Shown: piece after piece, positions 3,041 through 35,500 of the stretch
Layout: every line of letters begins with the position of its first letter
Numbering within the stretch: position 1 is the first letter of the stretch
NCBI GenBank assembly: GCA_965224195.1
Contig: OZ245040.1
Location: 704,001 to 768,000 of the forward strand
Direction: 5' to 3'
Source: Nitrosopumilus sp.
GTDB taxonomy: Archaea; Thermoproteota; Nitrososphaeria; Nitrososphaerales; Nitrosopumilaceae
Length of the DNA: 64,000 nt
Notes under the pieces: generated by a model
The model's input: only the letters and a program-made list of their open reading frames with translations
Told to the model about the DNA's origin: nothing
Database searches by the model: none
Program-made: the position numbers and the translations under genes

Positions 3041-3143
3041 GTGTCTGTGATTATATGATGACATACTAAAAGTTTACAGCGTGCATGTGTGGATGAGTTT
3101 ACATGCCTGGTCTTACCGTGAAGTGTTCTGATGGTGTGGTTTA

Positions 3144-6100
3144 CGTAACATTTTGGTTACGGAAATTCCTCCCATCAGGGGAGGTTCAGGTCAATACAGT
3201 ATGGGCTTCAATGGGGCCGTAACATTTTGGTTACGGAAATTGGGGAAAATGACATATACAATATATACTGTATATACGCTTCAATGGGGCCGTAACATTT
3301 TGGTTACGGAAATTGCATGGACCTCCAGATATAATTTACTCAACTTGTTCCGGCTTCAATGGGGCCGTAACATTTTGGTTACGGAAATGTATCTAATGGT
3401 CTTGGACCTGGACTTTTCTCACGAGCTTCAATGGGGCCGTAACATTTTGGTTACGGAAATTTGCGGAGATTTTCATCATTTCTTGCAAGAGTTGTATAGC
3501 TTCAATGGGGCCGTAACATTTTGGTTACGGAAATTATGGGTTAACCGTCTGGATGATTTGGAAGAAGTGTAGCTTCAATGGGGCCGTAACATTTTGGTTA
3601 CGGAAATTGCCTGGCCGGATATTTTTAGAATGCGGCGTATCCGGGCTTCAATGGGGCCGTAACATTTTGGTTACGGAAATTAATCACTCCCTGCTGCCAC
3701 TACCAGCAGATGACACAGCTTCAATGGGGCCGTAACATTTTGGTTACGGAAATCACGGGATGGAGTATAAACGATATTGAGCATTCTGCTTCAATGGGGC
3801 CGTAACATTTTGGTTACGGAAATAAGATGGCCAAGAAGAAGAGGCAGCACCAGCACCAGGCTTCAATGGGGCCGTAACATTTTGGTTACGGAAATCGTTG
3901 TAGATATCACCGGTGACAGAGTCTTCGTCTAGCTTCAATGGGGCCGTAACATTTTGGTTACGGAAATTTATCTGCCGTAATTTCAATTGAATCAATTGCA
4001 GTCTGCTTCAATGGGGCCGTAACATTTTGGTTACGGAAATCAGGTACCAGCATGGGCATAACTGACATGGTGGGCAAGCTTCAATGGGGCCGTAACATTT
4101 TGGTTACGGAAATTAGATTAGTTCTGCGTTGTTTCCTTCTCGGCATATTGGCTTCAATGGGGCCGTAACATTTTGGTTACGGAAATAAAAATTGACATAC
4201 ACTATGCCAATTTCCAGATTGGTAAGCTTCAATGGGGCCGTAACATTTTGGTTACGGAAATATCCCACTGTTGCCAGTGATGACACGTGTGACATCCTTG
4301 CTTCAATGGGGCCGTAACATTTTGGTTACGGAAATTGTGTCGACTATGATGGGGAGGATGTGCAGTATGTCTAAGCTTCAATGGGGCCGTAACATTTTGG
4401 TTACGGAAATAAAAAAGAAGTGGGTGAACCACGGTTATCATTTATTAGCTTCAATGGGGCCGTAACATTTTGGTTACGGAAATATTTCAGGTCTGCTTTT
4501 CTCAAGGTTGCACCGGGTTGCTTCAATGGGGCCGTAACATTTTGGTTACGGAAATAAATCATACGGGCCTTGAAGCGACCCGCTGCAAAGCAAGCTTCAA
4601 TGGGGCCGTAACATTTTGGTTACGGAAATTATTCCTGGCAGATGTCATGGACAAAATCAGTGGTCATGCTTCAATGGGGCCGTAACATTTTGGTTACGGA
4701 AATTAGGAACACCTGCATAACAGTAAGACATTTATCCGTAGCTTCAATGGGGCCGTAACATTTTGGTTACGGAAATGTGTCTCGCTCAAGCAGTGTCTTT
4801 GTTACGTCATTGTCTGAGCTTCAATGGGGCCGTAACATTTTGGTTACGGAAATCGTTTTGTGGTGACGTGTACCTGTTGGCACCGGTGTGCTTCAATGGG
4901 GCCGTAACATTTTGGTTACGGAAATCAGGGAGCTTTCTCGGGATACCGGTCAGCTTGGCTTTGCTTCAATGGGGCCGTAACATTTTGGTTACGGAAATCA
5001 TGCTATTCCGACGTGGTAGGTGTATCTACGAATTGCTTCAATGGGGCCGTAACATTTTGGTTACGGAAATCATATCTGAGATTTGCTCCTTCCAGATCTG
5101 TGCCAATGCTTCAATGGGGCCGTAACATTTTGGTTACGGAAATCATATGATATCGGGTATGGCCGTCCAATGTCCTCGGGCTTCAATGGGGCCGTAACAT
5201 TTTGGTTACGGAAATGGGATGAAGTACGGGCAAAAATAAATCGTGCAACCATGCTTCAATGGGGCCGTAACATTTTGGTTACGGAAATATGGCTACAAAG
5301 TCATAACTGTAATGGTGGTTAACGCGCTTCAATGGGGCCGTAACATTTTGGTTACGGAAATTAATGCTGAGTTGTTAACCAAATTCACATTCGTAAAGCT
5401 TCAATGGGGCCGTAACATTTTGGTTACGGAAATCGGTATCGAAACCTATCACAAGCCCAACCCTGAAAACTAGCTTCAATGGGGCCGTAACATTTTGGTT
5501 ACGGAAATCCGGTGGTGATTCTGCAATAGCTGATAGTTACACATTGCTTCAATGGGGCCGTAACATTTTGGTTACGGAAATCAGTTAAGATGACGGATTA
5601 TATAGATCAGTCCGAAATCGGCTTCAATGGGGCCGTAACATTTTGGTTACGGAAATCATTGCGTATACAGCGTGCTCATGTGCTTTTCAATGGCTTCAAT
5701 GGGGCCGTAACATTTTGGTTACGGAAATCACCTGACGGAGGAGTTGATGGCGGTGATGGTGATGGGCTTCAATGGGGCCGTAACATTTTGGTTACGGAAA
5801 TTTGTCAGGGCGAGTGAGACGAGGGTTGGCACGTATGCTTCAATGGGGCCGTAACATTTTGGTTACGGAAATTCGGCAGATAGACGGAGTGTTATGATGC
5901 CAGTCGAACCGCTTCAATGGGGCCGTAACATTTTGGTTACGGAAATCAAAGGACATATGTACTGCCCAAAATGTCGCAGACCTGCTTCAATGGGGCCGTA
6001 ACATTTTGGTTACGGAAATTAACCCAGGGATTCCCGGCGTAATCGATGGAGTTGTGCTTCAATGGGGCCGTAACATTTTGGTTACGGAAATCCGAGACTC

Positions 6101-9100
6101 TTGACATTGCGGAATCGCTTGGATCAAGCTTCAATGGGGCCGTAACATTTTGGTTACGGAAATTGCCTGTACCAAGATGTGATTTTATCGAGGGCATCCT
6201 TGCTTCAATGGGGCCGTAACATTTTGGTTACGGAAATCCGTAAAGGCTGCTGACCAGTGGAGGTCTAGTATCTAAGCTTCAATGGGGCCGTAACATTTTG
6301 GTTACGGAAATAATGCAAAGGCATGATTCATGAAATGGGTTACAGTCTGCTTCAATGGGGCCGTAACATTTTGGTTACGGAAATCTGAACCGATTGCCGC
6401 GTATGCCTTTTCTTTCTTCTTGGCTTCAATGGGGCCGTAACATTTTGGTTACGGAAATGCGTATATAGCAGTTATAATTTCAGAAACAGAATATGCTTCA
6501 ATGGGGCCGTAACATTTTGGTTACGGAAATTTATAGCTCATGACATTGTCAGTGTGGAAGTCATTTAGCTTCAATGGGGCCGTAACATTTTGGTTACGGA
6601 AATGCACCAAAAAAAGGGTAACTTGGGTGTTTACAATTCTGCTTCAATGGGGCCGTAACATTTTGGTTACGGAAATCGAGTTAACCCCATGTCTAGGGTC
6701 GTGGTGTCAAGAGCTTCAATGGGGCCGTAACATTTTGGTTACGGAAATTCAGATGCAAATGGGGAAATTGTCATGGGCGCAGAATAGCTTCAATGGGGCC
6801 GTAACATTTTGGTTACGGAAATATCGCCGTTGCCAGTGTGCCACCTACAGTATCTCTCGCTTCAATGGGGCCGTAACATTTTGGTTACGGAAATAAAATT
6901 CGGAAACAACTAGAGCAGGACAAACTGAATAGCTTCAATGGGGCCGTAACATTTTGGTTACGGAAATATTTCCACAACGGAAACGTTGTGGCCCCATTGA
7001 AATAGCTTCAATGGGGCCGTAACATTTTGGTTACGGAAATCAGAAAAGGCTAGACGTGTATTTGACAGCAGGAGCATGCTTCAATGGGGCCGTAACATTT
7101 TGGTTACGGAAATTCACGGAAAATATGCCGACATTCGCTTAACGCCTCACGCTTCAATGGGGCCGTAACATTTTGGTTACGGAAATCAAAAATTAATGCT
7201 TGGAAATAAGTTCTCAAATCTAAGTGCTTCAATGGGGCCGTAACATTTTGGTTACGGAAATCAAAATTGCAGAATAAATGTCAAGTTCTTCCAGCTTGCT
7301 TCAATGGGGCCGTAACATTTTGGTTACGGAAATCACAAGGGAGCCACAACATATAAGCCCAGTTATTATAGCTTCAATGGGGCCGTAACATTTTGGTTAC
7401 GGAAATATGCCAATGTTTGCACGACCAGTTACAAACTTGTTCTCTCGCTTCAATGGGGCCGTAACATTTTGGTTACGGAAATTTGCAGGATGCCGTATCT
7501 GAGACGGAGACTAATTGAGCTTCAATGGGGCCGTAACATTTTGGTTACGGAAATCAGTTGGGCCTTTATTTCTCTGACCAGGTTGGCAGTGCTTCAATGG
7601 GGCCGTAACATTTTGGTTACGGAAATTCAGATTTGCTCCAAACATTTCTGCCCCTCTCAGAGCTTCAATGGGGCCGTAACATTTTGGTTACGGAAATCTA
7701 AAGAATTCAGGCAGTAAATCCGCCATATCTATCGCTTCAATGGGGCCGTAACATTTTGGTTACGGAAATTAGAAGATAGAGTGCGATTAAATGTTTGGTA
7801 GGGCATTAGCTTCAATGGGGCCGTAACATTTTGGTTACGGAAATACAGTAATTCCTGAAAAAGTGAATACTGCTGAACTAGCTTCAATGGGGCCGTAACA
7901 TTTTGGTTACGGAAATTCGAGCCATCAATGTTTGACAAATTCGTTCTACTGTGCTTCAATGGGGCCGTAACATTTTGGTTACGGAAATACGGGATATTGA
8001 TTCATTAACTCGTCAACGATTCTGAGCTTCAATGGGGCCGTAACATTTTGGTTACGGAAATTTTGGTTTCTTCGGATGTTTTCAGCGCACTAATTCCGTG
8101 CTTCAATGGGGCCGTAACATTTTGGTTACGGAAATCGATAGGTGATGACCTAGATAATGTCATAATTGATTAGCTTCAATGGGGCCGTAACATTTTGGTT
8201 ACGGAAATAAATCTGTTGCATTCAGCCAATAATGTGCTCCAACAGCTTCAATGGGGCCGTAACATTTTGGTTACGGAAATGCGGAAAACAAACAAAGCAC
8301 ATCACTCGAAAAAGAACAGCTTCAATGGGGCCGTAACATTTTGGTTACGGAAATCTCACAAGATTTACAGGTTAATCCGCCAAGTTAACTGCTTCAATGG
8401 GGCCGTAACATTTTGGTTACGGAAATTTGCAAAGCCAACCATATGCAAACCGTCTTGAATCGTCAAGAGCTTCAATGGGGCCGTAACATTTTGGTTACGG
8501 AAATTTATAACAATTCAAACATTGCTGAAGACTCTGACCTGCTTCAATGGGGCCGTAACATTTTGGTTACGGAAATCTTGAAAGGCGCAAATCTAAAAGG
8601 AGCAAACCTAGTGCTTCAATGGGGCCGTAACATTTTGGTTACGGAAATTCGGTTATAATCTCTGATTGTCATTAGTCCTCTTATCGCTTCAATGGGGCCG
8701 TAACATTTTGGTTACGGAAATCTGATACGTCGATGTCGATTGATGCCTTTCTTTTGCCGCTTCAATGGGGCCGTAACATTTTGGTTACGGAAATTTAGTC
8801 CAAAACTGGATTAACAGAAATTCCTCAAAGCTTCAATGGGGCCGTAACATTTTGGTTACGGAAATTTGACATAGTGGCTATCAAATTAGTGGCTCCTTGC
8901 ATATGCTTCAATGGGGCCGTAACATTTTGGTTACGGAAATAGGTCAAGATGGTTTAGAAATCATTGTTTTTTATAAGCTTCAATGGGGCCGTAACATTTT
9001 GGTTACGGAAATAAAATACAAACGAGGACTAAAAGCAGCTAGCACTGCAGCTTCAATGGGGCCGTAACATTTTGGTTACGGAAATCAGTTGATGAACTGA

Positions 9101-9740
9101 ACCAGAGTTCAGTTTTAGTCAGCTTCAATGGGGCCGTAACATTTTGGTTACGGAAATTCGGAACGATTGTAATAATTACAAGTGACCCGAAAAGCTTCAA
9201 TGGGGCCGTAACATTTTGGTTACGGAAATCTAATCCGTCTTGGGAATATGCTTTTTGACCGTGGATCTGCTTCAATGGGGCCGTAACATTTTGGTTACGG
9301 AAATGATGTGTATGCGTGCCTGTACCAAGATATAATTTTGTGCTTCAATGGGGCCGTAACATTTTGGTTACGGAAATCATGGAATTTTATTACACTGCAG
9401 TATCACGAGGGAGGCTTCAATGGGGCCGTAACATTTTGGTTACGGAAATTTATGCAGGTCACATGTGTTCGCTGTGGATACACAAAGCTTCAATGGGGCC
9501 GTAACATTTTGGTTACGGAAATGTGCAGTAGGTCTACCTCGACATCTACAGAATTATAGCTTCAATGGGGCCGTAACATTTTGGTTACGGAAATTTTTTC
9601 CAGCAAAAAATTGAAAAGAGATACACAACTAAGCTTCAATGGGGCCGTAACATTTTGGTTACGGAAATTCCGAGTACCCTCACGGAGTTAGAACTGAGTG
9701 AGTAGCTTCAATGGGGCCGTAACATTTTGGTTACGGAAAT
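3144..9740 (-). CRISPR. CRISPR array: 90 full 36-bp repeats plus one truncated trailer repeat, 90 spacers (mostly 36-39 bp)
   Basis: On + the repeat is GCTTCAATGGGGCCGTAACATTTTGGTTACGGAAAT (first full copy 3205-3240, last 9705-9740). On - it is ATTTCCGTAACCAAAATGTTACGGCCCCATTGAAGC, with stem CCGTAAC/GTTACGG and an ATTGAAGC 3' end. The truncated copy at 3144-3166 and the AT-rich leader next to cas2 give minus orientation. Units were counted by hand. Confidence 0.98.
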
Positions 9741-9911
9741 AGCAGAAATTGTGCTCAAGTTTTTACTATTTGTATAATTATACATACGTTTGTTTATTTA
9801 CTTCACAATATGTTGTTAACTATAAAAACCAATTTTTAGTTTTTCATAGATCTTATATTGTTATGACAAGCGCTTCTGCATGTGTACGTCATCACATCGT
9901 CCCTCGTCAAG
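9741..9911 (-). promoter_or_regulatory. CRISPR leader
   Basis: AT-rich non-coding stretch between the cas2 stop and the first repeat. It has a TATA-like TTTTTATA on - near 9821-9828 and the palindrome TGTATAATTATACA at 9771-9784. Confidence 0.8.
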
Positions 9912-10202
9912 TTATATTATTATTGCAGACTCTTTTTTTGTGTTTATCGGTTCACCTAGTGTGCTTATACAATTTTTACCTCTACCATCAACAGGTCCAA
10001 CATCAATTATTAAAACTCTGTCTTCTTTTAAATTTAATATCTCTTTTAGATCCCCTTTCATTAGAACCAATTCCTTTGGATTTACATCGCACATAAATAC
10101 AGAATATTGAACCGGTATGCCATAACCGTTCATTTTTTTGTATGTATCTGCAAGTCGTCTAGGCTCACTCACATCATAACATACAAAATATCTATTACGC
10201 AA
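9912..10202 (-). CDS. cas2: CRISPR-associated endonuclease Cas2
   Basis: 96 aa with YFVCYDVS...RRL and VQYSVFMC motifs; directly follows cas1. Confidence 0.95.
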   Translation of the reverse strand: MRNRYFVCYDVSEPRRLADTYKKMNGYGIPVQYSVFMCDVNPKELVLMKGDLKEILNLKEDRVLIIDVGPVDGRGKNCISTLGEPINTKKESAIII

Positions 10203-10205
10203 TAA

Positions 10206-11876
10206 TTATCGTGTCCTAAATGATAAATAAGAAGGTAATTCCCCTAAAAGGTATCGGGATAAAAGTCTTGCCTGAATTTCCATGATTCTTCTATAACTTA
10301 CAACGTATCCTAATAATGGGTGTGTGATTGGAGTATCCATCCTTCGCTCAAAGGCATTGATGATCTTGCTTTTTCCATTTTTTGTAAGAGTCACACCGAA
10401 CTTTGTTCTTATAATATCTGCATTTGATAATTCACCATTATTGATTATTGTAATGCAAACTGAATCTGCAATTATTGGCCTGAATTCTTCAATTAAATCT
10501 AAGGCAAGTGCAGGTTTACCATATCTGGGTTTATGAAGAAACCCTAGATAGGGATCAAGGCCTACTCGTAATAGAGTAACTGTTGCCTGTTTTGTAAGCA
10601 TCGTATACAAAAATGAAAGTATCGCATTTACTGGGTCTAGAGGAGGGCGTTTGTTTCGCCCATTAAAATCAAAATCATACAAATTTGTTTTTAGCATTCC
10701 ATTAAATTCTGAAAAATAAATCTTTGCTGCAATTCCTTCAATTCCAAGAATTTGTTCGTACTTTTTAGCAACACGTGCCTTCTCTGCAAATTTATCAATC
10801 TCAGTGGATACCGTATTTGGCAGATGTTTGTGATTTCTACGCAACAACGTAATGCAATTTTTGATCTTCCCAAATACAATCTCTCTCGCAACTGGCATGA
10901 ATAATTTATCTTCTGCTGCTTGTTTGTATTGGCATAATCTTAGTTCCACATTCTTATGAGACATTCCATTAGTAATCCCTGTAAACCATCCACCATAGCT
11001 CAGATAGCATATTGGAATATTATTATCACACAGATAACGTACTGCTTGAGTCGTAACTTGAATATTTCCCATTATTGTGATATTGGAGATGTCAAGCATC
11101 CTGATTTTTTTTAACACATTACCTTGATATTTGATTACTATGCAATCATGATCCTTTGATACTACGGCGCCTTGTTCCTGAACATATACTGGCATTGAAT
11201 CATCTACAGCAGGATACATGCGTCTAACTTGACTTTTTTTAATTAATTTCTTAGACTTGCCTGCAAGCAGATTTATCTCATCTGGAAGACATATTCCAAC
11301 CAGAGCACATCTGGGGCATTTTGGACTGTCTACTAGTGGGGGTGGCATTATATTTGAACGTGCCATGTCACGCATTTGCTGGATCATCTTTTCTGTCTTC
11401 TCAACTAGAACATCTGAAAATACAACTTCTATGCGCTGTTTTGATGATATGTAATATATGATTCCTTTTGTACATGTATATCCGTGAGATCTAAGTAATA
11501 ATCCCTGACCACATATCTGAATCTTGTGATAATCATGTACTTTATCTGGAATATTTGGAACGGCACCACGTTTGTATTCTATGGGTGTGGCATATGATCC
11601 ATCTAATTCTAGCAGGTCCATCTTTGCAATGAGACCAACATTGCTGTCTGAAACAGTAATTGATCTTGCATGAATTACTTGATCAGGATCTTCTCTTAGT
11701 TTTTTATTTCCTGACGGTTTATCTACATTTCTGTGCTGCATCTTTCCATCTATTACATCTACAGTATCTGTAAACTCATTTTGTATCCACTGCATGTATG
11801 CTGAACGTGGACAATATGCATATTCTGCAAGCATACTTACAGGAATGAATCTTGGTTCTTTGTATTCTGCCATCAT
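10206..11876 (-). CDS. cas1: Cas4-Cas1 fusion (type I-G)
   Basis: N-terminal Cas4 (YCPR, DLLE..PIEYKRG, CPRCALVGIC Fe-S cysteines). C-terminal Cas1 (GIEG, RNKRPPLDPVNAILSFLY, GFLH, ALDLIEEFR). Confidence 0.95.
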   Translation of the reverse strand: MMAEYKEPRFIPVSMLAEYAYCPRSAYMQWIQNEFTDTVDVIDGKMQHRNVDKPSGNKKLREDPDQVIHARSITVSDSNVGLIAKMDLLELDGSYATPIEYKRGAVPNIPDKVHDYHKIQICGQGLLLRSHGYTCTKGIIYYISSKQRIEVVFSDVLVEKTEKMIQQMRDMARSNIMPPPLVDSPKCPRCALVGICLPDEINLLAGKSKKLIKKSQVRRMYPAVDDSMPVYVQEQGAVVSKDHDCIVIKYQGNVLKKIRMLDISNITIMGNIQVTTQAVRYLCDNNIPICYLSYGGWFTGITNGMSHKNVELRLCQYKQAAEDKLFMPVAREIVFGKIKNCITLLRRNHKHLPNTVSTEIDKFAEKARVAKKYEQILGIEGIAAKIYFSEFNGMLKTNLYDFDFNGRNKRPPLDPVNAILSFLYTMLTKQATVTLLRVGLDPYLGFLHKPRYGKPALALDLIEEFRPIIADSVCITIINNGELSNADIIRTKFGVTLTKNGKSKIINAFERRMDTPITHPLLGYVVSYRRIMEIQARLLSRYLLGELPSYLSFRTR

Positions 11877-12589
11877 TCTTCATATGGCACAAACATTCCA
11901 AGTCCAAAATGACATCCATATCCCAAAAAAAGCGGTCCAGATACAGGATTGCTAAATTCCAGCATTACCTCATATCCTGGCATCGGTTTTTCATTTGGTT
12001 TTCTAATACGCTTGAACTCTTTTGGTTGTATTTTAGATAGATGCATTGGTATGCTATTGTCCTTTACAACCACATTTATTATTTTATATAAAGGATATCT
12101 CCGTTTCAATTCCAATTCTACTTGATTCTTTGGAGTATCAGACACCTTATTGCCACGGATTTTTGTATGCCGATTTAATACAAAAGGCGTTTTTGAAATC
12201 CATTTTTTATGTTCCTGCATCATTGAATTATCTTCATTGATATTGTCACAAAGTATTACATGTGCACGTATGTTGTCGTGTTTAGAATATATCTCATCTA
12301 CTGCTTTAACCGCATCTAGTTCCAATATTGTAAGTTTAGTATCTGTCATAATTGTTATATGATCAATATATCCATCACAATCATCATCAGTGGGAATATA
12401 AAAAACATGTTCATGCCCATATAGTGGCATGCCATTAGAATCCTTTCCGGCCAGTGTTCTTGAAACATTGTTATTGTTTTGTCTTCCATAATGGGACATT
12501 ATTGCCAATCTGATTAAACTGCCAACATTAATTGTAAAAGTTATTGAAATATTGTTTTCATAAATTTGATATCTTAATGTGTTGCACAT
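11873..12589 (-). CDS. Stand-alone Csb2 C-terminal/Cas6-like RAMP protein (second copy)
   Basis: GHEHVFYIPTDDDCDGYIDH, WISKTPFVLNRH and the G-rich loop GPLFLGYGCHFGLGMF resemble the Cas6 half of Csb2. It has no Cas5-like N-terminal half. Confidence 0.75.
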   Translation of the reverse strand: MCNTLRYQIYENNISITFTINVGSLIRLAIMSHYGRQNNNNVSRTLAGKDSNGMPLYGHEHVFYIPTDDDCDGYIDHITIMTDTKLTILELDAVKAVDEIYSKHDNIRAHVILCDNINEDNSMMQEHKKWISKTPFVLNRHTKIRGNKVSDTPKNQVELELKRRYPLYKIINVVVKDNSIPMHLSKIQPKEFKRIRKPNEKPMPGYEVMLEFSNPVSGPLFLGYGCHFGLGMFVPYEE

Positions 12590-12598
12590 CTTATCATG

Positions 12599-13525
12599 TC
12601 AAACTTCCTTTGTTCCTTTTGTAAATCTCATTTGTTTATCTTTGGTAATTCTTTCTGAAGAATACAATTCCAATCCAATTTTGTCAAGTTCTTCTGGCTT
12701 AAACTTGGAGTAATCTGTAGACAAAATACCTCGAATTTCGTCCAGACCTGCAAACTCTTCCCATATTGGCCATACAAATTTTTTGTCATTCCATCCAATA
12801 GTACGTACATGCTTACCATCGTATAGTGTGGGATAAAGAGAAATAGCTTCTACTGCAAGTCTGTTTGCTCCATGCATAGATGGGTTAAAACTCGGTACAG
12901 GATCAAATATCAGCAGTGCATGCTCTCGTAGAAGAGATATAGGATCCCAATACATAGAAACACCGTCATCCAAATAATCCCATTCTTTAAAGAGTGTGGT
13001 ATGGATCCCTTCTTTCTTTCTTTCTATTTCCCCCACAAGCTTGTTTGCATTCCCAAATAAAGTTGCGTTTCCAGTTACAAACCGAAACAAACTATCTTTA
13101 ATTTCTTCTTTGTCTGGAAAAGCAACAGATGCAGCAAAATCATATAGGCGTCTTTTGCTTGAAAAATTATTAGAATCGATCTTATTCATAATCAGATCCA
13201 TAATAAAACCCATAAATTCATTGTATTGATCATATTTGTTGGCCTTTGTAGATTTTGAGTCCTTTTTATTTTTCCCCTTCATAATCCCTCCATAATCAAT
13301 GTCTTGTGGCTCAAACAAAGGATCATCTTTGCCAAGATGCTCTGCAAGTAGATCAGATATCTCTTCTTCTGTTGGTTCTTTACCATCTTTACATCGTATC
13401 TCTGCATTGGTATTCCAACGTAACTCCCATTCTGATTTTGGTTCTATCATGTCAAGTACTCTAATAGTTCCAAGGGATACCAAAAAATTAAATGGGTTGT
13501 CAGGGTATAAACTGTGTAAGATCAA
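12599..13525 (-). CDS. Type I-G large subunit, Csb3-like (Cas8g/Cas8u)
   Basis: Follows cas3. The N-terminal LHSLYPDNPFNFLVSLGTIRVL and C-terminal GANRLAVEAISLYP..FVWPIW resemble the Cas8u family. The likely start is the TTG overlapping the cas3 stop (308 aa); the ORF track extends it to 13594. Confidence 0.7.
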   Translation of the reverse strand: MILHSLYPDNPFNFLVSLGTIRVLDMIEPKSEWELRWNTNAEIRCKDGKEPTEEEISDLLAEHLGKDDPLFEPQDIDYGGIMKGKNKKDSKSTKANKYDQYNEFMGFIMDLIMNKIDSNNFSSKRRLYDFAASVAFPDKEEIKDSLFRFVTGNATLFGNANKLVGEIERKKEGIHTTLFKEWDYLDDGVSMYWDPISLLREHALLIFDPVPSFNPSMHGANRLAVEAISLYPTLYDGKHVRTIGWNDKKFVWPIWEEFAGLDEIRGILSTDYSKFKPEELDKIGLELYSSERITKDKQMRFTKGTKEV

Positions 13526-16329
13526 TTTGTGCCACCGCTTGCTTCCCAATCCGCAAGTATGAATAAGGCCTCCAACCATGCAAGTCCCCACCACCCATAC
13601 TTTCTAACACATATCCAAAAACGTTTTGCAGCTCCACTTCCAACACGCTCAATTCCAGTAGACGCTTGAGCTTGTAGCGTTTTCCCATCCAAAACATACT
13701 CTATATTTGGATTTTCATCATCGATGACTACTGGTACAAACGGTCTACAATGACCATGATGGGATTCTACTAGGTGTAAAAATAAATCATTATCGAAAGT
13801 ATTCAGTGTTTTAGCAAATTCTGATGAAATAAATTCATGCCTAAAGCCCTTTGGGTAATATATGACACTTGAATCTTTTTTCTTCCCGTTATCTTTTGCA
13901 CGAAGTTGTGGATGGTGCATTTTTGATCTATACAGCATGTCTTGGAATCTTTTGTCTGCCTTTCCTATGTCGTGCACCTTTGCAGTCATTTCAAATAATG
14001 CAGTAAAATCATCTAGTTTTAGTTTTTCTACATATTTCTTAACATTTTTCACAACATCATCTGTATGATCCTCTAAAATTTCTTTTGGGGTATCTTTGTC
14101 TTTTTTTTGGCCTGTTTTATATCTGGATTTGATTAGCAAAATGTTGTCATCTAGCTCTCCAATATGATCTATAGGAGAATTTGTCATATCACTGTCGATT
14201 TTTAAAGTTTTGTCAATTGCTTTCAGGGAATCCCACAATGGAGTTTTTTCTAGTGATTTCCATATTGTTTTTTTAATTTTTTCAATATCCATCTTTGAAT
14301 ATTCATTTTTTATAGCATGAATAAGATCTTTTCCCTCATCTGTCATCTTTACTGGAAAGTTATTTCCCATTCTAATTACTAGTTTCTTTGTTGATTCAAA
14401 TGTAGCTTTTTCGGCAATGTCTACACATGTCTTGTCTGTATTTTCATTTGACCCATATTCATCCATGTCCGGTATGTGACCTAGTTTTGACCATCCTCCA
14501 TCTTCAGTACGTAGCACAATAACATCACTAGGTTTTATATCATCTGGGTTAATTTCACCGTTCTGACCTGATTTTTTACCGCGCCAAACCCATGCACTTA
14601 TCTTTGCTCGCTTCTCATTGTCCATGCCTTTTGCTCGCTTCTCATTGTCCATGCCTTCTGCTAACTGCCATTCCACATCTCCATCAGCGCATAAATCCTT
14701 TTCATTTTTTAGATATTTGCGAATATCCCATATTGGGACTTGCATGGATTCAATAGATTTTGGTAAAAGTGCATTCATTATGTCTTCCCAATTGGCATCT
14801 AGGCCAGAACGCCATATTACAGAGACCATTGGTGAGCCTCGCTCAAAGCCATGTAGAAATGGAGATATGTCAGGATCAATGTGAAGATGGTTGTGTGTTT
14901 GACATAACAGATCCATATGAGATGGTAAAAGATTGCATGATACTGGTCCTGGCATAACAAATTCTGCCACCTGATCATAATTACATTTATCAATTATTTT
15001 CTTGAATTTTTTTATCCCAAAATCTATCGTGTCGTTTGTGGCATTATTTTTAAGAAAGTCCCATGTTTTGCTTACTGTATCACCATATATAAAATCACTA
15101 CCATTACTATTTACGACAGATTTTGGCGCAACTATCGAACACCGTGAATTTAGATATTCGCCGCTACGGTTAAGCCTTCCAAATCTTTGCCTAAGTGAAT
15201 CTAAACTTGATGCCTCACTGACCATACCTGCAAAATCAAGATCAGCACCTACCTCAAGACACTGTGTTGTCACGATAAATGTTACTTCAGTGGGTTTTTT
15301 TTCACCTGTCTTAAATGGTTTTATATCGCGCCATAATTTATCACGATCCCATGGTCTCATTCTTCCAATCATGAGATGTGTATTGTGATGGCCACTTTCC
15401 TTTAATTTGCGATATACCTCTTTTGCTGTTGCGATTCTGTTTACAACTATGGCAATTGCTTTAATGTTGTCTTTCTCTAACTCTAAAGCTTGTTTTTGAA
15501 TATCTGATGCAAGTTTCTCATAATCCTTACTGTCTTTTGCATTTGATTCTATTAACTTACACATTTTAGAGGCCTCAACTATGCGTTTTATTTTATCATG
15601 TTTATAGTCAGCATCAGAGAGTTCAAATCTTTCTGTCTCTTTAATGGGTGTTGCAGTCATTTCTACCACACCCCATGGTCTAGGGATTGATTTACCCTCA
15701 ATCCAAGGTTCCTTCCTAAATTCTTCAATACGTCTTAATGTCTCTGTGAATGGTTTGCTGATATGCGTCTCATCTAGTATCCAAAGACAATCATATCCCA
15801 AAAGCCCTGCATTTACAAGTCTAGACATACGTCCTAGGCCATATCCGCGAAAGAGTAATCTGGATCCTGCTTGATCTACAGTTGATGCGATAACAATTGG
15901 TTGTACTGGATTACTACTCCATTCATTATCAATATGAGTTCCACCCCGGAGGACAGCATGCATTAGAGCTGTTTTACCTCCAGAAATATCACACAGGCTC
16001 TTTTTCACCCTCCCCAGTATCGAGTCATCTGTTGATTTCTCTAACTCATCGGATATTTTCTTGGCACGCTCATTTCCTTCATCTACAACTATTCGTCTGT
16101 TGACAACAAACACTATTCTTCTTGGATTCTTCTCAGGATTACATGCAAGTGCATATACTGCTATATCTATGCATGACGTCTTTCCACATCCAGTTGGAAC
16201 ATTTATGCTTTCAGGCCATCTACCTGTCTCAATTACTTGCTCGGCAAGCTTGCTTTGCCACGGGTATGGCTCATATCCATGTATTTCTCGATAAAAATCC
16301 TTAAACTCACAGGAAGTTAATTCAACCAT
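13522..16329 (-). CDS. cas3: Type I-G Cas3 helicase with C-terminal HD nuclease
   Basis: PYPWQ, PTGCGKT, STVDQ.GSRLLFRGYG, DETH, MTAT, EVGADLDF and QRFGRLNR, followed by C-terminal EDH, HDIGK, RHE, HHG and LAD motifs. Confidence 0.93.
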   Translation of the reverse strand: MVELTSCEFKDFYREIHGYEPYPWQSKLAEQVIETGRWPESINVPTGCGKTSCIDIAVYALACNPEKNPRRIVFVVNRRIVVDEGNERAKKISDELEKSTDDSILGRVKKSLCDISGGKTALMHAVLRGGTHIDNEWSSNPVQPIVIASTVDQAGSRLLFRGYGLGRMSRLVNAGLLGYDCLWILDETHISKPFTETLRRIEEFRKEPWIEGKSIPRPWGVVEMTATPIKETERFELSDADYKHDKIKRIVEASKMCKLIESNAKDSKDYEKLASDIQKQALELEKDNIKAIAIVVNRIATAKEVYRKLKESGHHNTHLMIGRMRPWDRDKLWRDIKPFKTGEKKPTEVTFIVTTQCLEVGADLDFAGMVSEASSLDSLRQRFGRLNRSGEYLNSRCSIVAPKSVVNSNGSDFIYGDTVSKTWDFLKNNATNDTIDFGIKKFKKIIDKCNYDQVAEFVMPGPVSCNLLPSHMDLLCQTHNHLHIDPDISPFLHGFERGSPMVSVIWRSGLDANWEDIMNALLPKSIESMQVPIWDIRKYLKNEKDLCADGDVEWQLAEGMDNEKRAKGMDNEKRAKISAWVWRGKKSGQNGEINPDDIKPSDVIVLRTEDGGWSKLGHIPDMDEYGSNENTDKTCVDIAEKATFESTKKLVIRMGNNFPVKMTDEGKDLIHAIKNEYSKMDIEKIKKTIWKSLEKTPLWDSLKAIDKTLKIDSDMTNSPIDHIGELDDNILLIKSRYKTGQKKDKDTPKEILEDHTDDVVKNVKKYVEKLKLDDFTALFEMTAKVHDIGKADKRFQDMLYRSKMHHPQLRAKDNGKKKDSSVIYYPKGFRHEFISSEFAKTLNTFDNDLFLHLVESHHGHCRPFVPVVIDDENPNIEYVLDGKTLQAQASTGIERVGSGAAKRFWICVRKYGWWGLAWLEALFILADWEASGGTN
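14603..14657. repeat. In-frame 27-bp tandem duplication inside cas3
   Basis: TTTGCTCGCTTCTCATTGTCCATGCCT occurs twice, encoding GMDNEKRAK twice. Confidence 0.95.
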
Positions 16330-17780
16330 TGTTTATCCCACCATGGCCTACACAAACCATACCCATTATATCTTCCAGCTCCTAATAATAATGGACCTGT
16401 GATTTTTTCCTTGAATTGAAGTCGTGCATGCACTTGTATTCTGTTTTCTGCATACTTTGGAAATGTGTTGGACTTTGGCACTCCCTTTAGAAATGCAATA
16501 TTTGATATGGATACATCAGGTTCAGGAAGATTTTGATATGTGCATGATTTGGATATTATTTCCCCCGCTTTGTCATTCCAGGTTGTACTATCTTTTACAC
16601 GTGGAATTCTATCTAATATTATTGGTGTTGTTGTAACCCATGTTCTTGCAGATTCTTTCCAAGTATTCGGGTCTAGCGTTCTTATGGGGTGATCCGGAGG
16701 ATCCAAAGAAAACACTATGTCATCATAATTTTTATTCTTGATTCTAATCTCCGTGGATTCTTTAGTGCCAAACAATGCCTTTGAAATAACATCTTCACTT
16801 TTAGAATCTCTTTCACGTGGAAATATGATTGCAACGCCACGAATTAATCCGTCTGCATATGAATGGCCTGTAAAAGATAATGGTACTATTGCAATATGTG
16901 GCTTTTTACTTGGATTTCCATCCGTATCAAGTCCTGATATATATTCTGGCGAATTACTTTCCTGTATTTTATTTCTTAGAGATCGTATTACATGTTTGCT
17001 GTGTAATAAACTGGGTTTTTGATCACTTGTAATTGGCATAATCCACATATCTGAAAATTGACCTCGAATACAGGGTGCTTTCTGATCTTGTTTTTTAGAA
17101 TATCTGTATTCTGGTAGAGATATGGCATTAAGACGTGCTTTTCTGATAAAATATTCATCATGACTTTTAAGAATGTCTTTTACCATAAATGATTTTTCTA
17201 GTTTGGATAATAGTCCTTTTGATGCCCAGCGAACTGTGGTATCTCCAAACTTGTCTGGAATCATGGCAGGATCTATGCTGACTTTTGAATCATTAACGGT
17301 TAATGAGACAAAACTGCTACTGTGACCCAACCTATGAACTCGAGAACAAAGTGTCTTTAACGTATTCGAGTATTTTTGAGAATCTGCATCATCCCATACA
17401 AAATACACTGGGTCATACCCTGTTATGGTGGTGGGAAACATGCGTGACTTGCGTATTCTATTTAGAGGTATTTCTAATGTTGTCAACAGTGCACCGCCTT
17501 TTTTGACTTTTTTCCCAATTTCATCATTTATTGGAACATATGTTTCTACAATATCACGTTTGGTAATTTTATCTGGTTCATAATATATCCAAGGGGGGCT
17601 ACATTGTTCAAGCCACTCTAAAGCTTTCTTTTCATTTTGTTTTTCACCTCCATCAAAATATGCCGACACCATTGCCATAAACAATCTGCCTGGATGTGGT
17701 GGCCATTCTGGTTTTTTATCTTGTTTTAAATTTGTTGCAGTATAGCGTCCTGTCAAAAACTCTATGCTGATAGACAGCAT
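16317..17780 (-). CDS. csb2: Type I-G Cas5/Cas6 fusion Csb2
   Basis: FLTGRY, PEWPPHPGRLFMAMV, ALEWLE, YVPIND, LGHSSSFV, WVTTTPIILDR and GPLLLGAGRYNGYGLCRP. Confidence 0.92.
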   Translation of the reverse strand: MLSISIEFLTGRYTATNLKQDKKPEWPPHPGRLFMAMVSAYFDGGEKQNEKKALEWLEQCSPPWIYYEPDKITKRDIVETYVPINDEIGKKVKKGGALLTTLEIPLNRIRKSRMFPTTITGYDPVYFVWDDADSQKYSNTLKTLCSRVHRLGHSSSFVSLTVNDSKVSIDPAMIPDKFGDTTVRWASKGLLSKLEKSFMVKDILKSHDEYFIRKARLNAISLPEYRYSKKQDQKAPCIRGQFSDMWIMPITSDQKPSLLHSKHVIRSLRNKIQESNSPEYISGLDTDGNPSKKPHIAIVPLSFTGHSYADGLIRGVAIIFPRERDSKSEDVISKALFGTKESTEIRIKNKNYDDIVFSLDPPDHPIRTLDPNTWKESARTWVTTTPIILDRIPRVKDSTTWNDKAGEIISKSCTYQNLPEPDVSISNIAFLKGVPKSNTFPKYAENRIQVHARLQFKEKITGPLLLGAGRYNGYGLCRPWWDKQWLN

Positions 17781-17782
17781 AG

Positions 17783-19057
17783 TTAATCTCCTTTTGAATC
17801 ATCTTCTAATCCACTTTGTGAATTTTTTATACACTGAATAAGATCCTGATTTGGTAATAATTTCATAGGTGTTGTATCCCATGGCAAATCATTACTAGTT
17901 GCATCTTTAATCGAGTCTTCTAATAATTTAATTGCACCTTTACTGTCAAGAGTAAATGTTTTATCCATATTGCCGAGTACATCCCAAGTTGTTGGTTCTT
18001 TTTGTATCAAAACACATCTTGAGCGAAGATCCAATCCATTTTCCACCGAAAGCGTAAATGCTACAAGTCCAAGTGCTGTTAATACTGCTCTTGCTGCATC
18101 ATCTTTTTGTATATTTATTGATTTTTCATTTTCATTAGGAAAATGTAGTTTTCGGAGTCCAGCAAGAGAGATAACACATGTCTGTTCTGCATATTCTATT
18201 GTTGCTCCATTTGCAGCGATATCCCCTTTTTTGATAGTGTTGTCGTTAGAAAGGGGATTACTTGAACCAGGTAAGTTATCACTATATGTATTGAGACTTG
18301 GTGCGACATTTCCTAGGTTTATGTTAGATAATTTCCCTTCTCGATATTTTGTTGACTTGTCTTTTTCGTCCTTTTTTGCTTCATTTTCATCAAGCGTCCA
18401 ACCTCCATCTTCTTTTTCCCATACTCTGCTATCAGAAGTTTTTTGGATTAAAGGATCAATACGGCTTGAAGTACCAACTCCAAACACTGCATTAATGCCA
18501 ACTATTTCACTAGTAATTACCCGTTCAAATTTGTTTCCCGATCCTCCTTTTGGACCTGCAGAGTCCCACATGCCAAAAAGTAATGCTGTAGGACATGTGC
18601 CAAACAGAGATGTAGAAGAATAAGGTGTAGAGTTTAGTATTTTGATACCCTCTTCAGATTCACGAAACGGCTTACCATTTAAAATACATTCCCTAAACAA
18701 TGCATCAGCTATGCGGTGCGGTGCCTGAAGGCTTGTTAAACGATTTCCTACAATGTCTAAATCATCTTTACTTGATTCAGAAAAATCAATTACAGCTAAC
18801 GGTAGTTTTATTTTTTCAGAATCAACAGCATTTTGTAATGCTTCCTCCATACGATTTGCTTGGCTAGCAACAGAATCCATCAAAACACATTTGGTTGTTT
18901 TTTCATTAACCAATCTGTCTTCTATGGCATACACTCCTCCTGCATATGTAGAGGGAAATATTTTACTATGTTGCCCACCGGCTGGATATAATTTGTTAAT
19001 TGTTCTTATGGCCACCTGATCTTTTATAATTTCCTTAAATTCTTGAAATTCTAACAT
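17783..19057 (-). CDS. csb1: Type I-G Cas7 backbone Csb1
   Basis: KIFPSTYAG, DSVASQANRME, APHRIADA, PTALLFGMWDS, SSRIDP, ISLAGLRKL and LRSRCVL. Confidence 0.92.
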   Translation of the reverse strand: MLEFQEFKEIIKDQVAIRTINKLYPAGGQHSKIFPSTYAGGVYAIEDRLVNEKTTKCVLMDSVASQANRMEEALQNAVDSEKIKLPLAVIDFSESSKDDLDIVGNRLTSLQAPHRIADALFRECILNGKPFRESEEGIKILNSTPYSSTSLFGTCPTALLFGMWDSAGPKGGSGNKFERVITSEIVGINAVFGVGTSSRIDPLIQKTSDSRVWEKEDGGWTLDENEAKKDEKDKSTKYREGKLSNINLGNVAPSLNTYSDNLPGSSNPLSNDNTIKKGDIAANGATIEYAEQTCVISLAGLRKLHFPNENEKSINIQKDDAARAVLTALGLVAFTLSVENGLDLRSRCVLIQKEPTTWDVLGNMDKTFTLDSKGAIKLLEDSIKDATSNDLPWDTTPMKLLPNQDLIQCIKNSQSGLEDDSKGD

Positions 19058-19079
19058 TGTGATCTATATTGAGATAATC

Positions 19080-19087
19080 TATATAAA
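19080..19087 (-). promoter_or_regulatory. Putative TATA box of the cas operon
   Basis: TTTATATA on -, 23-30 nt upstream of the csb1 ATG, typical of leaderless archaeal promoter spacing. Confidence 0.55.
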
Positions 19088-20144
19088 CTGTGTTGCACAA
19101 CTAGCCATTTGACCTAGATTATTGTACCAATAAACCATTAGATCATTAATTAATTTCATCACTCAGGCTTTAGATCAGAATATTCTTCATAATCTCATGA
19201 AACCGTAATTGGAAAAAATACAACAAATCATTAGTTAGACGTGGAGAAACCATGTTGTCTTTTGATGCAATAGATTCATGGAGTACCGAACTCAAAGAGA
19301 TGAACCACAAAAAAGAGGGAGTGGCATTAATTTGAATATTCTGAATCCTTCATGAAATCAGCAACTGGAATACTGTCATCTCTATTTGCATCTGCCATTC
19401 AGACAAGCAGAAGGTCTGATAAAATCACACCTACAAGAAAAGACAAAAACTCCTTATCCTATTTTGCAATCTGGAAACGTCTCAACAAGCTGAACCTCAA
19501 AATTAATCCTAGATTAGGAAAAGATACCGTAATTGCAATTGACAGCACCAGAGTCAAGGCTGCAGACAGAGGTGGGAGTGGATGAGGCAAAGGAGAAGAA
19601 GGGTTCCTGAAGATTCATGTGGCAGCCGTGTAAAATCAAAACAAATCACAGGTTTAGAAATCACATATGACAAGTCACATGATCTAAAATCTTTTATCTC
19701 TCTATAGTTGAACAATCAAAAAAAAATTGGCAGTGCAACTGAAACTCTAGCTGATGGTGCAATGATGCCACAGATAATTTCTCATATTTGTACCATGAAG
19801 GTATCATTACATGAAGATGTCATTCCAGGAATAAAAACAAGAAAGAACTCATCTGTAAACACTGATTGTTATCCAAGACGAAAATCGGTTTTGGCTCAAA
19901 TTTTCAACCATGAGTTGTGGAAGAACAGCGTAAGCTAGGAACATACGGATTGCAGAGTCAGTATTTTCTGCATTCAAGCGAATGTTTGGTGAGGCATGTC
20001 ACATCCCACAAAAGAAAAAATATGATTCATGAACTCAAAATAAAAGTCTGTTTGTACAATAAGATGATTGCAATGCAATAAAACGATTTGAAACAATTGA
20101 TTCATTCAAGGAATGTTGATGATTTTTGTGGTTGGGAAACACAG
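19088..20144 (+). mobile_element. Degenerate IS5-family (IS903-like) element with a fragmented transposase
   Basis: Fragments KYNKSLVRRGE, AIDSTRVK, KIHVA, LADGA and AESVFSAFKRMFGE fall in several frames. Imperfect TIRs are CTGTGTTGCACAAC (19088) and GTTGGGAAACACAG (ends 20144). No TSD is visible. Confidence 0.75.
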
Positions 20145-20229
20145 CATGACAAAGTACTGTTTGATGTAAGGTGTGTGATACTCGACGTATGGCAGTGATT
20201 GCCTTGATGCTAAAGCCCATACCAAAAGG

Positions 20230-20303
20230 CGCCTCCCACCAGACTTGAACTGGTGACCAACCGGTTAACAGCCGGTTGCTCTACCACGCTGAGCTAGGGA
20301 GGC
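20230..20303 (-). tRNA. tRNA-Asn(GTT)
   Basis: GCCTCCC acceptor stem, TAGCTCAG D-arm, ACCGG CTGTTAA CCGGT anticodon arm, GTTCAAGT T-loop and GGGAGGCG end. Confidence 0.95.
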
Positions 20304-20367
20304 ACACGATTGTACCTTGGCAAAAGTGATTTAATCTTTGCGACTATTGCTTAATCAGCTAAAATCC

Positions 20368-34107: not shown

Positions 34108-35402
34108 TTATTGGGTCCATCCCCAATTAACTAATTTTTGAACACTAGGTGCTTTAACACAAGCTGGTCCGCCAGATGGTTTAAACATTAATTCCATTGA
34201 TGCTTTACATTCAATATCTTCTGGTTGTACTCCTTCTTTGATCTGTTTTAATGGAGCTAAAGATGTATCTTCTGTATTGGAATCTTCCATAGATGGCGTT
34301 TCATCTGGCTTGTTTTGATCATCGGTTTCCATGGATAAAGTTTCATCTAATTCTACAACTATTGCTGAATCACTTCCAAAAACTTCTTCCATATGTTCTG
34401 AATCTGTAGATTCTACGCCACCCAGTATTTCAAACTCTTTGATGATATCATCAGCTAGTAATGTAACTTCTGATGGATCTACCTTTTGATCATATGCTAA
34501 CCAAATTTCAACATAGGTATCATCAACATCTCCAGAAGTTTCAATATCGTTTCTTATCTCTTCAAAGATTTGCTGTGATCTCCAAATGAATGCTGAACCG
34601 TCTTGAAATTCTGCTGCTTCTACAATCATTCCATCCTCAATTGCCTCCATATACTCGACTTTGGATGTTTCAAGTAAACCGTTGATTAATTGTGCTTTAA
34701 ACGATGAATCATTACTGAGTTCATCTCCAATTACAATATCTCTTGCTTCTTGAATAATTTCTTTTGCATCATCAATTGCAGACTGTGCATCACTTCTGGT
34801 GACTCCTGTACTTGCTTTATCCTTTAATTCAAACAATGTTTGTTCTAGTTTTGCTTTGAATTCTGGATTATCTTCCAGATGAGTACTCATAGTTTCAAAT
34901 AATTCTGAAATTGGATGTGTTGCATGAACTAATGCTAGTTCAGAATTGGCTTCATCAAGATTCATTTCTAATGCCCAAAAATGCCCTAATGTCTCCTCAA
35001 GTGTTCCTGCAAATTCTAATTTTAAATCTCTATCAGAATCTGCAAAAGCTAATGGGGTGCTCATTAGAACGGATTTGCTTGTACTATGTTCCTAGTATAG
35101 CGGGGCTTTCCGCCAACACGTTCCCCGCTAGTGCTCATTAGAACGGATTTGCTTGTACTATGTTCCTCTGAATGATCATTCATTGGAACGCTTGTAGAAC
35201 TTCTAAATGCGGTAGACCAGCTATCTTGATATGCTGCTTTTCCACCTGGGTAATCTGAACATAACGTTAATCCACAGATATCGGTACTTCCTGATGCACC
35301 ATTTTTACTTTTTAATGCACCAGCATCTGAAACAAAATTTGTTCCAAAAACTCCAACAACCAGGATTACTGCCATGATAATTACCAGACTTTTGTTTGTC
35401 AT
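34108..35402 (-). pseudogene. Secreted protein gene split by a 74-bp duplication plus insertion
   Basis: ORFs 35064-35402 (signal peptide) and 34108-35064 fuse in frame (406 aa) if one 37-bp copy and the 37-bp insert are removed. The C-terminus has a PLKQ..C..CVK..GW motif. Confidence 0.75.
35057..35167. repeat. 37-bp direct repeat pair flanking a 37-bp unique insert
   Basis: GTGCTCATTAGAACGGATTTGCTTGTACTATGTTCCT at 35057-35093 and 35131-35167. The insert AGTATAGCGGGGCTTTCCGCCAACACGTTCCCCGCTA lies at 35094-35130. Confidence 0.95.
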
Positions 35403-35500
35403 GAAGTTCAGAAATAATTGGCATATTTAATCGTGGACATTTTTCTATACTGTCATTACAAGTCTATGGAATGAGAGTGGAATATTGAATTATATTTTTT

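Follow-up and report, generated by a model that had tools for sequence, protein, structure and literature searches.

This study concerns a window of 64,000 nucleotides from a Nitrosopumilus sp. genome (GenBank assembly GCA_965224195.1, contig OZ245040.1, positions 704,001 to 768,000), in which a secreted-protein gene on the minus strand is interrupted by a direct duplication that encloses a short insert. The same window contains a type I-G CRISPR-Cas locus (clusters of regularly interspaced short palindromic repeats, with associated genes), and the duplication and the insert have the lengths of a CRISPR repeat and of a spacer. An earlier note on this DNA had proposed that the gene was knocked out when a spacer was acquired off target, in nature, at this site. 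Here we describe the structure, the class of similar structures to which it belongs in this genome and in that of a second species, and the explanations that may account for it. Positions are those of the window, except where they are prefixed C1 or serve as the name of a scar elsewhere in the genome.

The interrupted gene and its scar

The gene is now read as two open frames, of 112 amino acids (aa; 35402..35064) and 318 aa (35064..34108), neither of which matched a Pfam family; the N-terminus looks like a signal peptide. The interruption (Table 1) consists of two copies of a 37-nt sequence, recovered by a repeat search of the window as 100% identical and spaced 74 nt start to start, on either side of a 37-bp insert, just as the earlier note had described. 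The bases flanking the copies are unlike on both sides, and 37 bp is therefore the length of the maximal exact repeat. Deletion of one 74-bp period in silico yields a single frame of 406 codons followed by a stop, which reproduces the 406-aa frame claimed previously; in a frame survey of the scars treated below, the same gene goes from 414 codons to 327 and 120.

The insert is richer in G+C (59%) than the genome (33.6%) and forms a hairpin of -7.7 kcal/mol (z = -2.5) whose stem has 8 bp, 2 of 200 shuffled sequences folding equally well, in agreement with the G+C richness and the inverted repeat noted before, and 8-bp inverted repeats are also present in three of 288 ordinary array spacers. At up to three mismatches it occurs once in the window (0 expected, 100 shuffles) and once in the whole 2.07-Mb, two-contig genome. 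The duplication is as long as a CRISPR repeat, the arrays of the genome including ones with 36- and 37-bp repeats, and the insert is as long as a spacer, 61 of the 89 spacers of the I-G array being 36 or 37 nt; the 74-bp unit is close to the period of that 36-bp-repeat array, as pointed out earlier. The sequence CTAGT can be read directly at both junctions, as stated in the earlier note; as a feature common to the 32 scars described below it was not seen when their junctions were inspected, though not counted.

A genome-wide class of similar scars

A scan of the genome for similar duplications around inserts of 34-40 bp, proposed in the earlier note, proved decisive. Near-exact duplications (at least 26 of 28 positions matching) were collected at every period from 40 to 200, with exclusion of the three CRISPR arrays and of low-complexity repeats. 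Thirty-six matches fell at periods 70 to 76 (70:2, 71:4, 72:8, 73:11, 74:6, 75:3, 76:2), with a mode of 73; neighbouring periods had zero to two matches each, and the other peaks (60, 120, 153, 156 and 180) correspond to tandem-repeat proteins. After boundary refinement, 32 clean scars were retained, the one at 35057 among them, with duplications of 34-39 bp and inserts of 32-41 bp. Left out were C1:146508, which lies in a tandem-repeat protein gene, and matches whose refined duplications fell outside 34-39 bp (e.g. 798295, 813401 and 1619794); atypical matches at periods 78-80 (778950, 923061 and 1129510) were not counted.

The maximal duplication of the 32 scars averages 36.9 bp (36 bp in nine, 37 bp in ten and 38 bp in seven) and the period 72.9 bp, chance matches being expected by our estimate to add about 0.8 bp to a maximal duplication. 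All inserts are mutually different. The two copies are identical in 22 scars and differ at one base in eight and at two bases in two, and the events are therefore of different ages. The period is in frame in eight of the 32: where such scars lie in longer frames (e.g. 886994, 911485, 1326527 and 1698884) the frame stays open and is lengthened, and out-of-frame scars in long frames break them. Inspection of the lists, with no test dedicated to the question, revealed no scar with a third copy or second insert, that is, with a neighbour one period off that shares its duplication, which suggests that these units do not grow.

A further scar of this class, with a 35-bp duplication and a 38-bp AT-rich insert, lies near a helicase gene at C1:703813-703920, 81-188 bp before the start of the window. 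Several scars are located in or beside multicopy elements, and the genome contains an element of about 165 bp in at least 25 copies at 95-100% identity (e.g. C1:649891-650055). Two scars with 30-bp duplications, at C1:912673 (or C1:1228750) and its counterpart, have inserts of 36 and 39 bp and so share the geometry of the array with 30-bp repeats in this genome; a second integrase may thus occasionally miss its target as well.

Origin of the inserts and uninterrupted target sites

For eight of the 32 inserts, another locus of the same genome matches the full length (0-3 mismatches), several of these sources being multicopy, and in the traced inserts neither end of the homology runs past the insert boundary; a ninth listed insert, in scar 1277616, matches its source less well at one end. 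When one period was removed in silico, 12 of the 38 scars tested could be aligned across the junction to paralogous, uninterrupted copies inside the genome, in one example at 98.6% over 367 nt without a gap and in another at 95% to one of at least 15 copies. Orthologous empty sites were not recovered for the 905-925 kb region, where the matches in relatives covered only stretches of the query that lie apart from most of the scars. Together, the copied inserts and the empty sites show a process in which spacer-length pieces are cut from DNA and pasted elsewhere, about 36 bp being duplicated each time.

Full-length matches elsewhere in the genome, found for eight of the 32 ectopic inserts, were found for none of the 288 array spacers, as would be expected if only array spacers were exposed to autoimmunity. 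Mean G+C is 42% in the non-self inserts, 41% in the array spacers and 37% in the self-derived inserts, against 33.6% in the host.

Scars in genomes with and without a Cas1 match

Of 151 genomes of the genus, 11 have a match to the Cas4g/Cas1g family that exceeds the cut-off. In one of these, from a second species (G126), the Cas4g/Cas1g fusion is the only Cas1-family match, and the only array consists of 164 repeats of 36 bp that belong to the same repeat family as those of the I-G array in the window. This genome has 29 isolated matches at periods 70-76, of which 25 were clean by the same filtering, with duplications of 34 (one), 35 (two), 36 (eleven), 37 (eight) and 38 bp (three) and a mean maximal duplication of 36.4 bp. 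Six of the 25 inserts are full-length copies of the genome's own loci (five at 100% identity, one at 97%). One scar is present in two diverged copies, and a second such pair has 30-bp geometry. Since I-G is the only system detected in G126, it appears to be sufficient on its own for scars of this kind.

In the genome of a relative without a Cas1-family match (G010), no scar was found in the 560 kb sampled, 41% of that genome, where about ten would be expected at the density of the present one. In this comparison of three genomes, scars are present with a Cas1 system (32 here and 25 in G126) and absent from the sampled part of the genome without a Cas1 match. An apparent clustering of scars near the arrays of the present genome (15 of 32 within 100 kb versus 30% expected, P = 0.03) was dropped, as it was not seen in G126 (1 of 25, P = 0.95).

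Duplications of about 30 bp at periods of 64-66 were observed in G126 at C1:1251065, 1448839, 1483340 and 1826944 (L121, L131, L133 and L151), two of them being inverted copies of one another. With only a 36-bp-repeat array and one Cas1 match found in that genome, these scars may record a lost CRISPR system.

Features of the target sites

Over the whole class, the local similarity of the sites to CRISPR repeats is not raised (P = 0.91 and 0.98), and what the sites share lies at the edges of the duplication. The first duplicated base is C or G at 40 of the 64 junctions here, and G occupies position +3 at 20 of the 64 and at 30 of the 50 junctions of G126; the biases that the two genomes have in common are towards C or G as the edge base, G at +3, and A at both +5 and +6. 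Biases at both ends of the duplication are as expected of a two-fold symmetric integrase. A motif recognised post hoc at the duplication edge, GYTNCAA, is present at seven of the 64 junctions compared with 0.94 expected.

The disrupted gene and its relatives

Orthologues of the disrupted gene are 320-329 aa long, with a short signal peptide at the start, 73-80% protein identity and up to 95% DNA identity (in G127), and in alignments to these relatives none carried the duplication and insert, a structure which, had it been shared, the earlier note would have counted against its proposal. Synteny is retained in the relatives, with a Snf7-family gene upstream and then a thioredoxin-like gene. In the closest relative, G127, the orthologue (L038 1487-1900) appears to have been degraded by another route, with its start codon lost and the frame cut to 108 aa, which suggests that the gene is dispensable in this lineage.

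Where the orthologues have their short signal peptide, this gene has a promoter region and about 85 codons (window 35057-35500) that are homologous to the 5' end of another secreted-protein gene family, known from other genomes, one member of which (in G128) carries a plastocyanin-type domain. Homology to the nearest relative starts at 35055, at the outer edge of the duplication, the relatives being different upstream of it, and homology to the plastocyanin-domain-containing family stops at 35149, within the duplication. The junction of this 5' swap is contained in both repeat copies, and the swap is therefore older than the duplication.

The CRISPR-Cas systems of the genome

The 36-bp-repeat array that the earlier note had recognised in the window was confirmed, and it adjoins a type I-G gene set (Table 1). 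The positions of leader and trailer, the latter marked by a degenerate repeat at the far end of the array, suggest that it is transcribed from the minus strand. The genome has two further arrays, with 30-bp and 37-bp repeats, and three cas1 genes, each adjoining an array of identical repeats, which speaks for active machinery. The 37-bp-repeat array (C1:1457181-1466783) has 132 identical repeats, spacers of mostly 35-36 nt and a period of 72-74, and an intact cas1 stands alongside it.

Table 1. Features of the scar and of the type I-G CRISPR-Cas locus in the window
Feature	Positions	Strand	Remarks
Disrupted secreted-protein gene	34108..35402	minus	no Pfam family; now two open frames
Duplicated target, copy 1	35057..35093		37 bp, exact; codes, on the minus strand, for the end of the gene's N-terminal part
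Inserted spacer-length DNA	35094..35130		37 bp, 59% G+C, 8-bp internal inverted repeat, single copy
Duplicated target, copy 2	35131..35167		37 bp, exact
Degenerate partial repeat, trailer end of array	3141..3167	minus	
Type I-G CRISPR array	3205..9740	minus	90 identical 36-bp repeats, 89 spacers of 34-42 nt, period mostly 72-73
Putative leader, AT-rich, between array and cas2	9741..9911	minus	inferred
cas2	9912..10202	minus	TIGR01573, E 8.8e-9
cas4/cas1 fusion (Cas4g/Cas1g)	10206..11876	minus	NF049935, 714.7 bits, cut-off 560
Csb2-like	11873-12589	minus	protein family profile match
Cas3-extension	12599-13594	minus	protein family profile match
Cas3g	13522-16329	minus	protein family profile match
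Csb2	16317-17780	minus	protein family profile match
Csb1/Cas7g	17783-19057	minus	protein family profile match

Several further observations were made on these systems. One spacer of the I-G array (6968-7004) is itself CRISPR-repeat-like, sharing its end motifs and an internal stem with the I-G repeat family; it is oriented opposite to the array repeats and looks as if it had been taken from an I-G array of foreign origin. The array is adjoined at its trailer end by the gene of a large helicase (2-3064, minus strand) that is UvrD/PcrA-like and has a Cas4-like nuclease domain at its C-terminus. On the other side of the locus, 1.3 kb upstream of the first I-G gene (19064-20367) are devoid of open frames of more than 84 codons, and no Cas8g/Csx17-like protein was found among the eight proteins scanned. 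A lone degenerate I-G-like repeat (four mismatches) at C1:1626224-1626330, with a partial second copy about 40 bp further on, may be what is left of a small array. Between arrays, some spacers share overlaps of 19-22 nt (C1:713013 and 1457881; 944548 and 1465498), which indicates that the three systems sampled the same targets, and the 30-bp-repeat array holds a duplicated spacer pair. Elsewhere in the genus (e.g. G117, G032, G108 and G159), genomes contain several casposase-like Cas1-like frames of about 410-420 aa each that match only the Cas1 half of the fusion model.

Off-target spacer integration as the probable origin of the scar

We interpret 35057-35167 as the scar of an ectopic (off-target) CRISPR spacer integration, with a probability of about 0.88. 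The proposal of a natural off-target acquisition disrupting a secreted-protein gene is thus strongly supported, and chiefly so by the genome-wide class. The event would have been catalysed by Cas1: a Cas1-Cas2 complex loaded with a foreign prespacer of about 37 nt would attack one phosphodiester bond on each strand, the two lying about 36 bp from each other, in the secreted-protein gene instead of the leader-proximal CRISPR repeat, and gap filling would then duplicate the stretch between the cuts, leaving duplication, insert and duplication in the geometry of repeat, spacer and repeat. The gain of 74 bp would shift the frame and split the gene. The 37 bp observed would comprise a 36-bp stagger and one base matching by chance, which is probably how the extra base arose, and the insert would be of mobile-element origin. 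The view of the structure as a newborn mini-array was not sustained, as the scar gives no sign of working or growing; with flanks unlike a CRISPR repeat, no leader, and no scar of the class carrying a second insert, it is probably inert.

A number of observations weigh against this interpretation. The source of the insert was not found in the genome itself (at up to three mismatches and by blastn-short), in any of the 150 other genus genomes at up to three mismatches, in viral contigs (exact 37-mer and two sub-strings) or in metagenome and genome contigs (exact 28-mer), these contig scans requiring exact matches that a diverged source would escape; a blastn search of a phage collection returned only partial matches with E >= 2. 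The comparison with viruses and mobile genetic elements suggested in the earlier note accordingly yielded no source. Nor is there an orthologous or paralogous empty site for this scar, since the 5' end of the gene differs in the relatives, and its state before insertion is deduced from restoration of the frame alone. The break in homology with the relatives falls at the edge of or within the duplicated 37 bp, a coincidence with a chance of about 3%; a gene fusion that would link the 5' swap to the integration was considered and, no linking mechanism being found, the two were left as coincident.

The target site and the protospacers likewise lack expected marks. Compared in register with either repeat in either orientation, the site has only 11-13 identities of 36-37, and its local alignment to the repeat is at chance level, 31% of random genomic 77-mers scoring at least as well; the nearby echo of the repeat described in the earlier note reduces to a 7-mer of the same chance level and was discarded. 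Similarity of the duplication ends to the end of the I-G repeat, significant here (P = 1e-4), was not replicated in G126 (P = 0.4). No protospacer adjacent motif (PAM) is shared, in either orientation, by the 14 traced protospacers of the class (eight here and six in G126), a small sample, and none was found for the insert at 35094..35130, for which the earlier note had suggested a comparison with the PAM of array protospacers; the lack of a shared PAM in the class is unexpected for a Cas4-containing system, and it may be that prespacers without a PAM are those that go astray. The control without a Cas1 match, finally, was sampled in part and comes from a smaller genome, which may tolerate insertions less.

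Alternative enzymes and alternative processes

Given a Cas1 origin, the integrase was probably the Cas4/Cas1-Cas2 of the type I-G system, whose genes lie 25 kb away in the window. Two of the three Cas1 systems of the genome fit the geometry, and the same mechanism may have been carried out by the Cas1-Cas2, with separate Cas4, of the 37-bp-repeat system. The exact duplication of 37 bp, which also tells against our interpretation in its I-G form, equals the repeat of that system and exceeds the I-G repeat by one; its array period fits equally well, its cas1 is intact next to identical repeats, and the duplications of this genome lean towards greater lengths than those of G126, as a mixture of two enzymes might produce. 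Where the source resolves the boundaries, however, the duplication measures exactly 36 bp in scars 173581 and 898236 and 35 and 34-36 bp in two others, and is never forced to 37; it is exactly 36 bp in two scars of G126 as well, and the remaining traced scars of the present genome are compatible with 36. G126, moreover, makes the same scars with I-G alone, and the ends of the duplications resemble the end of the I-G repeat most strongly (P = 1e-4 versus 0.002-0.008 for the other repeats). We therefore consider the 37-bp-repeat system a possible but rather unlikely author of the scar at 35057, for which I-G is favoured, though not proven.

Processes independent of CRISPR adaptation account for the data far less well. 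Templated insertion or template switching, in double-strand-break repair or in replication, might be read from the CTAGT at both junctions, if taken as microhomology, from the ability of the insert to form a hairpin and from the coincidence of the site with an older recombination junction in the gene; yet no host DNA, adjacent or otherwise, matches the insert as a template by blastn-short, the adjacent host origin that the earlier note named as an objection included, and such repair would not give dozens of duplications of about 36 bp around inserts of 32-41 bp in two genomes and none in 560 kb of G010, which makes it very improbable. An assembly or sequencing artefact is less probable still, as there are 32 such structures here and 25 in G126, which was assembled independently and has one scar in two diverged copies; 10 of the 32 scars have one or two mismatches between their copies, and an artefact would not reproduce distant loci with sharply bounded ends. 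Least credible of all is the footprint of insertion or excision of a transposon or miniature inverted-repeat transposable element (MITE), in spite of the 8-bp inverted repeat near the ends of the insert and of the richness of the genome in multicopy elements. The multicopy MITE or insertion-sequence end that had been raised as an objection is contradicted by an insert that has a single copy in the genome and, with up to three mismatches allowed, no match in 150 others of the genus; the 32 inserts all differ, inverted repeats of 8 bp also occur among ordinary array spacers, and the usual target duplications of transposases are far shorter than 36-37 bp. A casposon was rejected as well, the insert measuring only 37 bp and all three cas1 matches of the genome adjoining arrays.

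Discussion

Casposons, whose casposases are Cas1 homologues, share with the scars the integrase chemistry of the Cas1 family and a target-site duplication. They are kilobase-sized elements with terminal inverted repeats and duplications of about 14-15 bp, whereas the inserts described here are 32-41 bp long, all different and flanked by duplications of about 36 bp. As regards type I-G adaptation itself, the Cas4/Cas1-Cas2 of Geobacter sulfurreducens reportedly acts in a PAM-dependent and directional manner.

Off-target integration as a type of event is already known from experiments in E. coli. For the type I-E system of that species, non-canonical integration and resulting 'neo-CRISPR' loci have been described (Nivala, Shipman and Church 2018, as presented in passages of 10.1101/148544, PMC7054753 and PMC9456107), and the same passages mention circumstantial natural evidence of off-target integration in two other species. 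As they depict it, a spacer placed by Cas1-Cas2 at a non-CRISPR site likewise forms a unit resembling repeat, spacer and repeat, but that work relied on overproduced Cas1-Cas2, supplied oligonucleotides and an IHF-dependent I-E system, whereas the scars reported here are natural and fixed in assemblies. The present genome differs further in its archaeal-type I-G Cas4/Cas1 fusion, in about 30 events per genome in genes and mobile elements, in the quarter of inserts that can be traced to self, and in that no scar has grown into an array.

With Cas1-Cas2 of Pyrococcus furiosus in vitro, the relevant part of PMC6698737 describes paired off-target full-site integrations on opposite strands at repeat-length spacing (30 bp). 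The pairing at repeat length (30 bp there and about 36 bp here), the favouring of G/C where the strands are attacked and the conservation of some bases by position are alike in both cases. The data presented there concern plasmid targets in vitro, in contrast to a chromosomal record under selection, and subtype, repeat length and motif are different; resemblance to the cognate repeat, in turn, is weak in the present scars and does not replicate from one genome to the other, unlike what is recounted for P. furiosus. The Methanosarcina barkeri I-G fusion offers a closer parallel in gene architecture, the fusion in the window scoring 714.7 bits against NF049935. In the sections consulted of PMC10274657, its integration into arrays is PAM-dependent and directional, less precise on the spacer side (60-70% at the correct site versus 80-90% on the leader side), and for some substrates also takes place at non-specific locations; the scars found here, by contrast, lie outside arrays and have no common PAM.

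In the full texts searched, no report was found of natural, genome-wide scars of ectopic spacers in archaea or in I-G systems. What is new is the natural scale, the subtype and host, the inserts traceable to self and the replication in a second species. Earlier evidence came mainly from overproduced E. coli Cas1-Cas2 or from proteins purified and assayed in vitro, and two wild genomes with dozens of fixed scars each now stand beside it. Several questions become testable from sequence as a result, namely the in vivo specificity of a Cas4/Cas1 integrase, the existence of a sequence-independent ruler of about 36 bp for the second cut, the self-derived fraction of raw acquisitions (8 of 32 and 6 of 25, versus 0 of 288 in arrays) and the cost to the host in broken genes. 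For annotation, a simple signature is provided by a unique insert as long as a spacer, enclosed by a unique duplication as long as a repeat; it explains puzzling frameshifts and in-frame insertions of 24-25 codons.

We lean slightly towards a broader proposal, according to which the I-G Cas4/Cas1-Cas2 of this genus habitually integrates chromosome-wide, at 13-16 clean scars per Mb, the scars keep an unfiltered acquisition spectrum, and some of them act as reversible switches or array seeds. If this is true, CRISPR adaptation would act measurably as an insertional mutagen, by which genes are broken or lengthened. Scars that are not processed into CRISPR RNA would escape autoimmune selection and would thereby preserve the unfiltered spectrum of acquisitions, of which about a quarter would be self-derived, without an obvious PAM. 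Precise reversal might also be possible through the 36-bp direct repeats, and some scars would then be reversible gene switches or the seeds of new arrays.

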